From a virus (taxonomy: Duplodnaviria > Heunggongvirae > Uroviricota > Caudoviricetes), in the IMG/VR virus record IMGVR_UViG_2526164609_000012: 16,518 nt of DNA. One strand, given 5' to 3'. Below the pieces are notes generated by a model, which searched no databases, had not been told where the DNA came from, and worked only from the letters and a program-made list of their open reading frames with translations. Position numbers and translations under genes: made by a program. How positions within the stretch are numbered: position 1 is the stretch's first letter; every line of letters starts with the position of its first letter. Shown here piece by piece: positions 1,725 through 5,299 of the stretch.

Positions 1725-2051
1725 ATGAAAAGAAATCTTCCGTTAATTATTTTGTTGTCTTCTCTGGTTATGGGCTGTACGCAACATAAAACAGATATGC
1801 CCCGACAGTTGGTTAAGGCATTACCACAATATCCGGCCTATGCAGCGGCAAATTATATAAAGGGACGGGTTGATGTGAGGTTTGATATTGGTGCTGATGG
1901 TACTGTCACCCGAATTGAGTTTATTCGTTCAGAGCCGCACCATCTGTTTGATGAGCAGGTTGTAAAGGCGATGGCAAAATGGCGATTTGAGAAGGACAGG
2001 CCGTGTAAAGGCGTGAAGAAAACGTTTATCTTTAGTCCTTCCGCACCCTGA
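1725..2051 (+). CDS. moron lipoprotein with TonB C-terminal-domain-like fold
   Basis: ATG at 1725 with GGGGA 6 nt upstream (ORF track starts at GTG 1710). Signal peptide MKRNLPLIILLSSLVMGC with lipobox-like VMGC. C-terminal part (PAYAAANYIKGRVDVRFDIGADGTVTRIEFIRSEPHHLFDEQVVKAMAKWRFEKDRP) aligns by eye with the E. coli TonB C-terminal domain signature (G.V.V.FD...DG.V...P...F...V..AM..WR.E). AT-richer than flanking phage genes. Confidence 0.7.
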   Translation: MKRNLPLIILLSSLVMGCTQHKTDMPRQLVKALPQYPAYAAANYIKGRVDVRFDIGADGTVTRIEFIRSEPHHLFDEQVVKAMAKWRFEKDRPCKGVKKTFIFSPSAP

Positions 2052-2182
2052 TTATTTCATCAGAAATTAATTATCACTCTGTTGTTATTCTGTACATCCC
2101 GGCAGGGTAAGTCTTGTTCCGTCGGATATGAAGATGAAATATTGTTGGAGGACAGTGGGTACCTGCTCCTGTAACCGAACGT

Positions 2183-2383
2183 TCATTTCTCGTTATTTGT
2201 CATGCTGGCCGGGCGCAGATGCGTTGCATCTGTTGCCAGCCTTCTCCTGCAGGCTTCAATAACCCACGCTGAAAAGTTACCGGACCCTTTATGCTCAAGG
2301 GCGATGTTGATCTGTTCAATCATGTGATTGGGGAAACGGATATTGCGGGTTGTGGTTCTGCGGGTACGGTTTTTCGATGACAT
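2183..2383 (-). CDS. small putative ribbon-helix-helix DNA-binding protein
   Basis: Minus-strand ORF trimmed to internal ATG at 2383, which has AAAGGAAAT upstream: MSSKNRTRRTTTRNIRFPNHMIEQINIALEHKGSGNFSAWVIEACRRRLATD... Basic N-terminus, a short beta-like segment (RNIRFP) and two helices fit an RHH pattern. Divergent from the HNH gene. I think it resembles small enterobacterial prophage proteins but cannot confirm the family. Confidence 0.5.
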   Translation of the reverse strand: MSSKNRTRRTTTRNIRFPNHMIEQINIALEHKGSGNFSAWVIEACRRRLATDATHLRPASMTNNEK

Positions 2384-2424
2384 ATTTATTTCCTTTACTG
2401 ATTGCCATATGACGGGGATTTTAC

Positions 2425-2790
2425 ATGGCTGAGCTTCGTACACTCCAGAGCAGAATCAAAACACTGAATACCCGACGGGTGAATATTCTGAAGGGTGAAC
2501 AGCGTCGTGTCAGTGGCAGTGCACGTGTTTCCCTCAAGCGTCATATCTGGCTCAGGGACGCCGGGCAGTGCCGTCTCTGTGGTCGTGTGGTTGACCTCTG
2601 TGACAGTGAACTCGATCACCGAATTGCACTTCAGTTCGGTGGTGGTAATGAGGAGACGAATCTCTGGACGCTCTGTACCGAATGCCATCGACAAAAGTCT
2701 GCTCGTGAAGCGGCGAGTGATATGCCGGACCCGACGCTGCCGGAGGTGTCCGGAGGTAGTGGCAGAGAGGACGACATCATCGGACTGTAA
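2425..2790 (+). CDS. HNH endonuclease, packaging-associated
   Basis: 121-aa ORF with Cys pairs and HNH motif (CRLCGRVVDLCDSELDHRIALQFGG...NLWTLCTECHRQKS); GGGGA RBS. Sits immediately upstream of a cos-like repeat region and the terminase small subunit, the usual place for terminase-associated HNH proteins in HK97-like phages. Confidence 0.85.
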   Translation: MAELRTLQSRIKTLNTRRVNILKGEQRRVSGSARVSLKRHIWLRDAGQCRLCGRVVDLCDSELDHRIALQFGGGNEETNLWTLCTECHRQKSAREAASDMPDPTLPEVSGGSGREDDIIGL

Positions 2791-2879
2791 CCCGACCCCG
2801 GGGGGTATCATCCGGCGTAAAAAACGATCGCTTTGGACACCGCGCCCCCTCTCACGCAGAGAAAAAATTCCCGTTTCAG

Positions 2880-3006
2880 GCCAGTTAACATGTTAACTGG
2901 CTGTCCGGGCATTTTTGCGGTTTTTATCTTTATTATTCAGTTTGTTGTGCGAAAAAAAATGTTAACTGGCTTTTTCAGAAAATGTTAACCAGGCAGCAGT
3001 TAACAT
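2880..3006. repeat. cluster of GTTAAC-centred motifs including a perfect 22-bp palindrome; candidate cos / terminase recognition region
   Basis: Perfect palindrome GCCAGTTAACATGTTAACTGGC at 2880-2901; ATGTTAACTGGC again at 2959-2970; ATGTTAAC at 2982-2989 and its inverse GTTAACAT at 2999-3006, separated by CAGGCAGCA. An A/T tract (2911-2958) lies between. All within the non-coding gap between HNH and the terminase small subunit. Confidence 0.45.
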
Positions 3007-3080
3007 TTGCGGCATGAGACGCCGGGAAAAATGGGCTGAACCATACCCGGCTGAGTGCGTTCTGGACCCGGGAGGAGGCT

Positions 3081-3641
3081 GTGCTGACAACGCAAAAACG
3101 AAAATTTGCGCTGGCGCTCATGTCCGGGAAAAACAAAACAGCGTCAGCCATTGCCGCCGGTTATTCGGCGAAGACCGCCAGGGTTAAAGGCTCGCAGCTG
3201 GCAAAAGATCCGGAGGTGCTCGCGTTTATAGCCCGTAAACAGTGCGAAACGGTGGAGGTGGATGAGGTTCCTGTTTACCGGCAGAAAAAATCAGAGCAGG
3301 AGGATAAACCCCGTCGCCGTGAGGCGGCTGCAATACCACAGCCGGACGAAAACAATCCGGAGATGCCACCGCCCGCGGTGATGTCTCATGGTATTGAATA
3401 TATGGAGGATGGTCTTCCCGATCCGGTGAAAGCTATGGGGCAGATCCTGGTGGAAAACCTCAGCATTGATCCGAAACTGGCACTGGATGCGGCCTGGCGA
3501 CTGGCGCAGTTCACACACCATAAAAAAGGCGATGCCGGTAAAAAATCGGCAAAAGGTGATGCCGCGAAAAAAGCGGCTAACCGTTTTGCGGTACCACCAC
3601 CACGACTGGTGGTGAATAACGATAATGAGGGCAACGGATGA
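3081..3641 (+). CDS. terminase small subunit
   Basis: 186-aa ORF, GTG start at 3081 preceded by GGAGGAGG. N-terminal HTH-like segment (KRKFALALMSGKNKTASAIAAGYSAKTARVKGSQLAKDPEVLAFI) typical of small terminase subunits; stop overlaps the large-subunit start (ATGA at 3638-3641). Confidence 0.8.
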   Translation: MLTTQKRKFALALMSGKNKTASAIAAGYSAKTARVKGSQLAKDPEVLAFIARKQCETVEVDEVPVYRQKKSEQEDKPRRREAAAIPQPDENNPEMPPPAVMSHGIEYMEDGLPDPVKAMGQILVENLSIDPKLALDAAWRLAQFTHHKKGDAGKKSAKGDAAKKAANRFAVPPPRLVVNNDNEGNG

Positions 3642-5299
3642 TACCTGTATGGAGCACGGCCTGCCCGGACTGGGCAGAGCGCCTGAAAAAGGGGCTGTCG
3701 ATTATTCCGGCTCCGATTTATCCGGACCAGGCCGCACATGCCCTGGCGATTTTTAAACAACTGCGGATTGTGGATGCACCGGGTAGCCCGACGTTCGGGG
3801 AGTCCTGTGCACAGTGGGTGTTTGACCTGGTGGCGGCTCTGTTTGGCTCCTACGATGCGCAGACCGGTGTCCGCCATATCAAGGAAGTGTTCATTCTGAT
3901 ACCCAAAAAAAACAGCAAGTCCACACTGGCCGCCGGGATCATGATGACGGCGCTGTTACTGAACTGGCGGCAGGCGGCGGGTTACACGATTCTGGCCCCG
4001 ACTGTGGAGGTGGCAGCCAACGCCTTCAATCCTGCCAGGGATATGGTACGACGGGACGATGATCTGGATGACCTCTGTCAGGTGCAGACACATATCCGGA
4101 CCATCACCCACCGGGTGACGGACACCACCCTGAAGGTGGTGGCAGCCGATCCGAATACGGTGTCCGGTATCAAGTCCGTGGGGACGCTGATTGATGAGTT
4201 GTGGCTGTTTGGCAAGCAGTACAAGGCGGAGGACATGTTACGTGAAGCCATCGGCGGGCTTGCCTCCCGCCCGGAAGGGTTTGTGGTGTATACGACCACC
4301 CAGTCGAATGAACCGCCCGCCGGGGTGTTCAGACAAAAACTGCAGTACGCCCGGGATGTGCGCGACGGCAAAATTAATGATCCGCACTTTCTGCCGGTGA
4401 TATTTGAACACCCTCCTGAAATGGTGGAAAGCGGGGCTCACCTGCTGATGGAAAACCTCGCCATGGTCATTCCGAATCTCGGCTATTCAGTGGATGAGGC
4501 CTTTCTGTACCGGGAGTACCGTAAAGCCCGGGAAGCCGGTGAAGAGACATTCCGGGGGTTCATGTCAAAACACGCCAATGTGGAAATTGGTCTTGCCCTG
4601 CGCTCTGACCGCTGGGCGGGGGCTGATTTCTGGGAAGAGCAGGGCCGTTGTATCAACCTGGACGATATCCTGCGTCGTGTTGATGTGGTGACGGTGGGGA
4701 TTGACGGCGGAGGGCTGGATGATCTGCTGGGGATGTATGTGATTGGGCGTGACCGGGAGACCCGCGAATGGCTGGGCTGGGGCCATGCCTGGGCGCATGA
4801 AACCGCGGTGGTCCGACGGAAGAGCGAGGCGTCCCGGTTTCATGATCTTGTTGCCTGTGGAGATATGACCATTGTCCGGCGTGTCGGGGATGACACGGCG
4901 GAAGTGGCGGAATATGTGCGTCGCATTCATGAGGCTGAGTTACTGGACCATATCGGTATTGACCCGTCAGGGGTGGGGCAGATTCTGGATTCACTGGCGG
5001 AAGCCGGGATCCCCGACGGAATTGTGGTGGGGATAAGCCAGGGCTGGAAACTGGGCGGGGCCATTAAAACCACCGAGCGCAAACTGGCTGAAGGGGTGCT
5101 GGTGCATGGTGACCAGCCCCTGATGGCCTGGTGTGTCGGCAATGCCCGGGTGGAGCCTAAAGGTAACGCCATTCTTATCACCAAACAGGCCAGTAGACGG
5201 GGAAAAATTGACCCGCTGATGGCGCTGTTCAATGCGGTCTCCCTGATGTCCCTTAACCCGGAACCGAAAAAGAAAGAATATGCGGTTTTTTTCATATAA
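3638..5299 (+). CDS. terminase large subunit
   Basis: 553-aa ORF. ATPase P-loop-like segment (FILIPKKNSKSTLAAGIMMTALLL) and a C-terminal nuclease-like region (VTVGIDGGGLDDLLGMYVIGRD); size and position after the small subunit fit. Confidence 0.9.
   Translation: MIPVWSTACPDWAERLKKGLSIIPAPIYPDQAAHALAIFKQLRIVDAPGSPTFGESCAQWVFDLVAALFGSYDAQTGVRHIKEVFILIPKKNSKSTLAAGIMMTALLLNWRQAAGYTILAPTVEVAANAFNPARDMVRRDDDLDDLCQVQTHIRTITHRVTDTTLKVVAADPNTVSGIKSVGTLIDELWLFGKQYKAEDMLREAIGGLASRPEGFVVYTTTQSNEPPAGVFRQKLQYARDVRDGKINDPHFLPVIFEHPPEMVESGAHLLMENLAMVIPNLGYSVDEAFLYREYRKAREAGEETFRGFMSKHANVEIGLALRSDRWAGADFWEEQGRCINLDDILRRVDVVTVGIDGGGLDDLLGMYVIGRDRETREWLGWGHAWAHETAVVRRKSEASRFHDLVACGDMTIVRRVGDDTAEVAEYVRRIHEAELLDHIGIDPSGVGQILDSLAEAGIPDGIVVGISQGWKLGGAIKTTERKLAEGVLVHGDQPLMAWCVGNARVEPKGNAILITKQASRRGKIDPLMALFNAVSLMSLNPEPKKKEYAVFFI

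Follow-up and report, generated by a model that had tools for sequence, protein, structure and literature searches.

A conserved opposite-strand YlcI/YnfO (DUF3950) gene, probably encoding a small DNA-binding protein, at what looks like a module junction of a lambdoid prophage

Does a small opposite-strand gene that shares a 41-bp intergenic region with an HNH endonuclease gene control its neighbour, or have two phage modules come to lie side by side? We examined this question in a 16,518-nucleotide stretch of viral DNA (IMG/VR record IMGVR_UViG_2526164609_000012), here referred to as the window, which represents the late region of an E. coli prophage that is lambdoid and Stx-like. Its genes follow the order lysozyme (50–583), Rz/Rz1, a lipoprotein with a TonB C-terminal domain (1725–2051, plus strand, identified from the ORF, Pfam TonB_C and the annotation of relatives), a 66-aa ORF (2183–2383, minus strand), an HNH endonuclease (2425–2790, plus strand), the small terminase subunit TerS (Terminase_2; 3081–3641, plus strand; phrog_641, E 6e-66), the large subunit TerL (3638–5299, plus strand, identified from the ORF and the annotation of a homologous gene) and the head genes. 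The 66-aa gene begins with an ATG at 2383, preceded by an AAGGA Shine-Dalgarno sequence, ends with a stop codon at 2183–2185 and encodes the protein MSSKNRTRRTTTRNIRFPNHMIEQINIALEHKGSGNFSAWVIEACRRRLATDATHLRPASMTNNEK. Both ribosome-binding sites lie in the gap that separates the divergent starts (2384–2424). An earlier note on this DNA had described the two genes as divergent, with starts at 2383 and 2425 and 41 bp between them, and these coordinates proved to be exact. According to the ORF list and the annotation of relatives, the 66-aa gene is the sole minus-strand gene between the lysis and the terminase genes.

The 66-aa protein belongs to the DUF3950 or YlcI/YnfO family. It matched Pfam DUF3950 (PF13132) with an E-value of 4e-20 and 71.8 bits (curated cut-off 25) and NCBIfam YlcI_YnfO_N (NF041551) with 35.3 bits (curated cut-off 30), in addition to phrog_949, a family of unknown function (E 2e-33). 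Alignments and a census of loci placed it, by its length and its IRFP...NFSAWVIEAC core, among the proteins of ~50–80 aa that are found in Enterobacterales prophages. Both the gene and its pairing with HNH are already annotated and very common, and are ordinary as a scan finding. A search of the literature turned up no paper that deals with what YlcI, YnfO or DUF3950 does.

Is the ORF a real gene? Over codons 1–49, 26 of 147 nucleotides and 3 of 49 residues were changed relative to the homologue in phage lambda, giving a pN/pS of 0.069, and the comparison with BP-4795 gave 0.14. Among 20 diverse members of the family, the DUF3950 frame had the lowest pN/pS of the six frames (0.275) and was open in all of them, whereas the shadow frame, which lies on the opposite strand and uses the same wobble positions, reached 0.367 and was interrupted by stops in 6 of the 20, the window included. 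On the pN/pS values and the stops in the shadow frame, we rejected the idea that the ORF is a shadow of a longer opposite-strand gene. Judged by these comparisons, it is a genuine, strongly constrained gene under purifying selection. Past about codon 50, its C-terminal tail is variable.

The earlier note had further proposed an RHH-like DNA-binding protein, a fold that profile search and structure prediction could bring out. What these returned was the DUF3950 match and a strand-helix-helix model, and no RHH profile. In the AF2 monomer (mean pLDDT 69), a basic arm of residues 1–14 leads into an extended NIRFP stretch (14–18), the putative beta-strand, which is followed by helix A (19–32), a G-S-G-N loop and helix B (37–55). 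A basic N-terminal arm and a G-x-N/S turn before helix B are the pattern of the RHH superfamily, and the arm MSSKNRTRRTTTRN and the G-S-G-N-F-S turn of the window protein would fit it. The list of PDB structures returned by Foldseek was made up nearly entirely of RHH proteins (NikR N-domain, ParD2, MazE9 N-domain, Arc, YiiF, ParD1 and VapB), every one with an E-value above 2, while Foldseek of the model against viral models was uninformative.

At the sequence level, no RHH family was matched in Pfam, even at E-values up to 10, and a profile search of PDB gave no match. Alignments by hhalign with Arc, CopG and NikR were in register and non-significant (P 0.02–0.3); in the one with Arc, the N-I-R-F-P of the window protein lies opposite N-L-R-W-P. 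The window protein resembles Arc, Mnt, CopG and MetJ in its small size, predicted strand-helix-helix order, turn before helix B and basic arm, and differs from them in that no significant sequence or profile match links it to them and no operator repeats occur near its gene. Since the RHH-dominated Foldseek list lies entirely above an E-value of 2 and no sequence or profile match was obtained, the RHH fold is probable, with its membership not statistically established. The beta-alpha-alpha model and the RHH-dominated fold list therefore speak for the earlier proposal, which fell short of a significant match. Going by this model, the YlcI/YnfO gene probably encodes a small DNA-binding protein.

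The pairing with HNH is strictly conserved within one lineage. The HNH protein, of 121 aa and of the type associated with cos packaging, matched PF01844 (E 3.7e-8) and phrog_589 (E 1.8e-43). In E. coli E118, in phage JLK-2012 and in another five Stx or lambdoid phages (81–95% identity), both genes are annotated with 41 bp between them, as here, and the window DNA occurs at 99.9% identity in RefSeq E. coli genomes, annotated there as a YlcI/YnfO family protein next to an HNH endonuclease. Altogether, 83 phage records and ~1236 of 5426 complete E. coli genomes carried the pair, and of the 84 phage records in which this HNH subfamily occurs, 83 had the DUF3950 gene as well. The arrangement is therefore conserved, as its presence in seven phages or prophages with exactly 41 bp attests, and the strict spacing and the co-occurrence could reflect functional coupling in addition to shared ancestry. 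In JLK-2012 the HNH gene (L001 4926–5456) is annotated with 176 aa, against 121 aa in the window and the other relatives, which suggests that the C-terminus has changed, or a frameshift has arisen, in one of the versions.

Outside this lineage, the two genes occur apart. The DUF3950 core was the only one of the two in 71 of 154 phage records, and it was present in 4184 of the 5426 complete E. coli genomes (77%), with up to 12 copies per genome. Lambda, 434, DLP12 (ylcI) and Qin-type loci have a DUF3950 homologue and no HNH gene; at all these loci the homologue is the final gene on the minus strand ahead of cos and a Nu1-type terminase. The lambda-type homologue shares 46 of 49 N-terminal residues (94%) with the window protein. 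At the DNA level, the homology starts at the ATG and stops near codon 50; since it begins only at the ATG, the upstream DNA is unrelated. The K-12 proteins YlcI (DLP12) and YnfO (Qin) are of the same family and of similar size, with ~90% identity over the N-terminal 50 residues, and their genes are likewise the last opposite-strand genes before a lambdoid packaging module. On the other hand, their tail past about residue 50, as that of the lambda protein, is unrelated to that of the window protein, and across the gap, in K-12 as in lambda, stand cos and a Nu1-type small terminase gene ~390 bp away, where the window has HNH at 41 bp. The reverse case is Salmonella phage FSL SP-016, in which an HNH-TerS-TerL-protease module of 68% identity has no DUF3950 gene and is preceded by an unrelated, co-directional gene.

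Since the small gene is found without HNH and HNH without the small gene, the back-to-back layout is best read as a module junction. It looks like a junction inherited within one prophage lineage rather than a regulatory pair, and the two genes stand back to back because the packaging module of this lineage starts with an HNH gene of the HK97 gp74 type. In lambdoid prophages, the 66-aa gene is the single opposite-strand unit between the lysis and accessory region and the packaging module.

We then searched the DNA around the gap for control signals. The half of the gap next to HNH (TATATGRCGRGGATTTTAC) is conserved, and the half next to the start of the 66-aa gene differs between the window and its relatives. 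No direct or inverted repeats were detected in 2384–2424. A promoter scan found no plus-strand promoter-like site upstream of HNH, the gap included, where the earlier note had looked to promoter mapping, and a scan of 1900–3200 found no terminator-like site. This absence fits a late transcript that would include HNH and the terminase genes and run antisense through the 66-aa gene. For the 66-aa gene itself, scan and alignment of relatives identified neither a conserved promoter nor a terminator. A TAAAAT on the minus strand (2423–2418) is invariant in the alignment of relatives and could speculatively serve as its –10 element; it has no acceptable –35 and was not called by the scan. The upstream region of the lambda-type homologue showed no clear promoter either.

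Two other candidate signals were rejected. A tool-predicted sigma-70-like site on the minus strand inside HNH (2513–2485; CTGACA, 17 nt, CAGAAT) was discarded because its –10 is lost, becoming CAGGAC, in 3 of 7 relatives. A search for an operator shared by the window-type and lambda-type upstream DNA yielded only the 11-mer ACACTGAATAC (2461–2471), which was marginal against shuffled sequences and is altered in the Stx-type relatives.

On the other side of the HNH gene, the window has a packaging module of the HK97 gp74 type. HNH genes are known to adjoin cos and terminase genes (PMC3592412), and here the gene with the HNH motif stands directly upstream of a cos-like region, which is followed by a Terminase_2 TerS and TerL. 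The window agrees with such modules in its order of HNH, TerS, TerL and protease or capsid genes and in its cos-like intergenic region (PMC3592412); it is the 66-aa gene that lies outside the module, and the FSL SP-016 module lacks it. The 290 bp between HNH and TerS (2791–3080) are the probable cos region. A 42-nt block at 2834–2875 recurs with 86% identity in a further HNH-TerS module (L091). GTTAAC occurs 9 times in the window, where 2.1 sites are expected, and 5 of these are clustered in the HNH-TerS region, with five copies of a ~12-bp motif containing GTTAAC at 2880–3008. Among these copies lies a perfect 22-bp palindrome, GCCAGTTAACATGTTAACTGGC (2880–2901). From its sequence, 2834–3008 probably comprises the region of cos cleavage together with the sites that TerS binds. 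No Rfam family matched in the window.

The wider family is small. A HMMER scan of 1.84 billion representative proteins gave only 101 DUF3950 relatives, many of them error-ridden copies of lambda control DNA, and the true relatives were all from Enterobacterales. At least 15 loci with a homologue are int-alpA-primase satellites, from Serratia, Pectobacterium, Xenorhabdus, Klebsiella, Enterobacter and Gilliamella, at which the DUF3950 homologue is the sole opposite-strand gene, placed between int/alpA and the primase operon. No cos-like DNA was found beside the satellite copies, and Rfam identified no immunity RNA of the C4/IsrK type near them. The Rfam int-alpA RNA motif was present in two of the DUF3950 satellites (L087 7827–7892 and L012 7069–7135) and tRNA genes flank the integrases of L071 and L076, as would be expected if the elements are integrative int-alpA islands.

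In five diverged clusters of satellite proteins (48–86% identity), DUF3950 is fused to a TerS N-terminal HTH via a disordered linker, and the HTH domain of the fusion is 62% identical to residues 2–51 of the window TerS. The fusions are 123–142 aa long with a linker of ~28 residues (L004 4714–5103, L091 9001–9429, L092 777–1148), and their gene is the sole one on the opposite strand from alpA to the primase operon. One of the satellites with a fusion sits inside a prophage late region and adjoins an HNH-TerS pair. By analogy, the fusions may be a regulator or a packaging device resembling Rpp, the packaging-redirection protein of E. coli PICIs. As with Rpp, they carry a copy of the DNA-binding fold of the helper's TerS without the rest of TerS; Rpp, however, consists of a winged HTH and a coiled-coil dimerisation domain, has no DUF3950 and shares no sequence similarity with them, and the window protein is unfused. 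The fusions are the only hint of a link between DUF3950 and packaging. We weighted this hint modestly because the satellite zone that extends from alpA to the replication genes is known for swapping DNA-binding domains (10.1101/2022.07.18.500453).

What, then, could the 66-aa protein do? The divergent starts, with spacing identical in the seven relatives, the conserved HNH-proximal half of the gap and the presence of the gene in 83 of the 84 records of this HNH subfamily would all suit a local repressor that binds around the gap, silences a promoter of HNH and the terminase genes in the lysogen and regulates its own synthesis. Mnt of P22 is an RHH gene set against late-region genes, and the window gene may be likened to it in this orientation. 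We consider such a role quite unlikely. Homologues combine a near-identical DNA-reading N-terminus with unrelated upstream DNA and no HNH neighbour, the same N-terminus facing cos and Nu1 in lambda, 434 and DLP12; the gap has neither repeats nor a plus-strand promoter call; HNH lies in line with the late operon; and the related HNH module of FSL SP-016 does without the gene. The regulation of HNH and terminase expression that the earlier note had envisaged thus found no support. An accessory role in packaging, in which the protein would bind cos-proximal DNA or a TerS domain and modulate the recognition or cleavage of cos, maybe in a competition between helper and satellite, also seems unlikely to us. 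It would explain why the gene always sits at the edge of the packaging module, near the cohesive end in lambda and one gene from the probable cos here, and why satellite proteins join DUF3950 to the TerS HTH. Yet the gene lies on the strand opposite to the late operon and is therefore not expressed together with the packaging genes, FSL SP-016 has a module of this type and lacks the gene, satellite copies have no cos-like sequence beside them and the fusions come from a zone where domains are known to be swapped.

It is very improbable that the locus yields no functional protein and serves as a shadow ORF, an antisense RNA or a recombination linker between modules. This would agree with the homology across phage types being a block of ~150 bp with unrelated DNA on either side, with the long opposite-strand ORF that overlaps the gene in many satellites and with the promoter that was not found; it is opposed by the pN/pS of 0.07–0.14 in the DUF3950 frame, by the comparison of that frame, always open, with the shadow frame and its stops, by the conserved start codon and ribosome-binding site and by the lack of an Rfam match in the window. 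Least probable of all, to the point of being negligible, is an orphan RHH antitoxin of a toxin-antitoxin pair, although the protein weakly matched phrog_497, which is HicB-like (E 0.007), and ParD, MazE9 and VapB are among its fold matches (all with E above 2). No adjacent, co-oriented toxin gene was found in any context examined, and its neighbours in the window, in lambda, in DLP12 and in the satellites include none that is toxin-like; the idea was dropped because the partner gene is missing.

The explanation towards which we lean, with some reserve, is an independent accessory DNA-binding protein that is made when late transcription is off and acts on a target common to lambdoid prophages, satellites or the host. 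The protein would form a small dimeric DNA binder of the RHH type with a basic N-terminal arm, as the model suggests. Its own promoter would drive the gene in lysogeny or early infection, while late transcription is off; the late transcript, carrying HNH and the terminase genes, would then cross the gene in antisense, and this head-on transcription would silence it. The protein would be a transcription factor whose target is shared by many lambdoid prophages, or lies in the host or in satellites, rather than in the neighbouring DNA. In K-12, at least 50% of the RNA-seq samples analysed show the transcripts of ylcI and ybcW overlapping convergently, as an excludon (PMC12288877); ylcI is therefore transcribed in an uninduced cryptic prophage. 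A more far-reaching version, which we regard as distinctly unlikely, is that DUF3950 forms an RHH signalling layer shared by lambdoid helper prophages and int-alpA-primase satellites of the PICI/HES type. Phage and satellite copies might then mix as dimers or share operators, setting satellite induction or packaging, and the TerS-fused versions could, by analogy, be Rpp-like devices that redirect or block the recognition of cos.

Genes antisense to the lytic genes of prophages are typically accessory, or moron, loci (PMC7067206), and the 66-aa gene is such an independent unit, lying inside the late operon and against it. The earlier note had suggested, as one possibility, a moron cassette with the upstream lipoprotein gene. 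The lone unit antisense to the late operon agrees with a moron; the cassette does not hold, as the lipoprotein gene lies on the other strand, convergent with the 66-aa gene and 131 bp apart, and the two therefore form no operon. Moreover, the homology of Stx-type relatives to the window is lost to the left of about 2229–2249. The lipoprotein itself matched Pfam TonB_C (E 9e-15) and also phrog_1267, whose label "Rz-like spanin" looks like a mislabel, and such a lipoprotein, with its TonB domain, could have an accessory or exclusion function among the late genes.

The DUF3950 core is present in 77% of the complete E. coli genomes and close to the end of lambda, yet no function has been reported for it. 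If it is an RHH DNA binder and its target is found, a gap would be filled in the best-studied phage, and the target could bring to light cross-talk among prophages, Stx phages and satellites that reside in one cell. The lambda genome (NC_001416) has a 64-aa ORF of the YlcI/YnfO family on the minus strand at 48109–48303 (L098 2210–2404), 199 bp from the right cohesive end. The RefSeq record has nothing annotated past lambdap79 (47738–47944), and the conserved DUF3950 gene is therefore missing from the reference annotation of lambda.

Lambda right-end contigs of ~3.5 kb or 48.5 kb were also encountered in the assemblies of dozens of unrelated organisms (L016–L050, L062, L069), including Kitasatospora, Cohnella, Pseudomonas, Flavobacterium and several MAGs. 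They look like leftover sequencing control DNA, and they also account for the many frameshifted DUF3950 "homologues" in protein databases.

An opposite-strand ORF of 224–429 aa runs through the DUF3950 ORF in many satellites (L058, L065–L067, L071, L075, L076, L084, L087 and L012), and in Pasteurella phage Pmp7 the overlapping long ORF is annotated as a "transcriptional repressor". The only widely conserved stretch of these long ORFs, QASITHAEKL, is the mirror of NFSAWVIEAC. Because of this, they probably extend a short real gene (the phrog_1743 part) in the upstream direction, although true overlapping genes in the satellites are not excluded.

In Erwiniaceae and Yersiniaceae, stand-alone DUF3950 genes were also found at sites that appear to be chromosomal and not of phage origin, namely in Rouxiella (L006/L051), Pantoea (L082 and L077–L086) and Tatumella (L053/L057/L060/L074). 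In two such cases, the gene is directly downstream of cytochrome bd oxidase genes or of an ABC transporter gene pair, and in Pantoea a DUF3950 gene adjoins an AbiE toxin-antitoxin pair.
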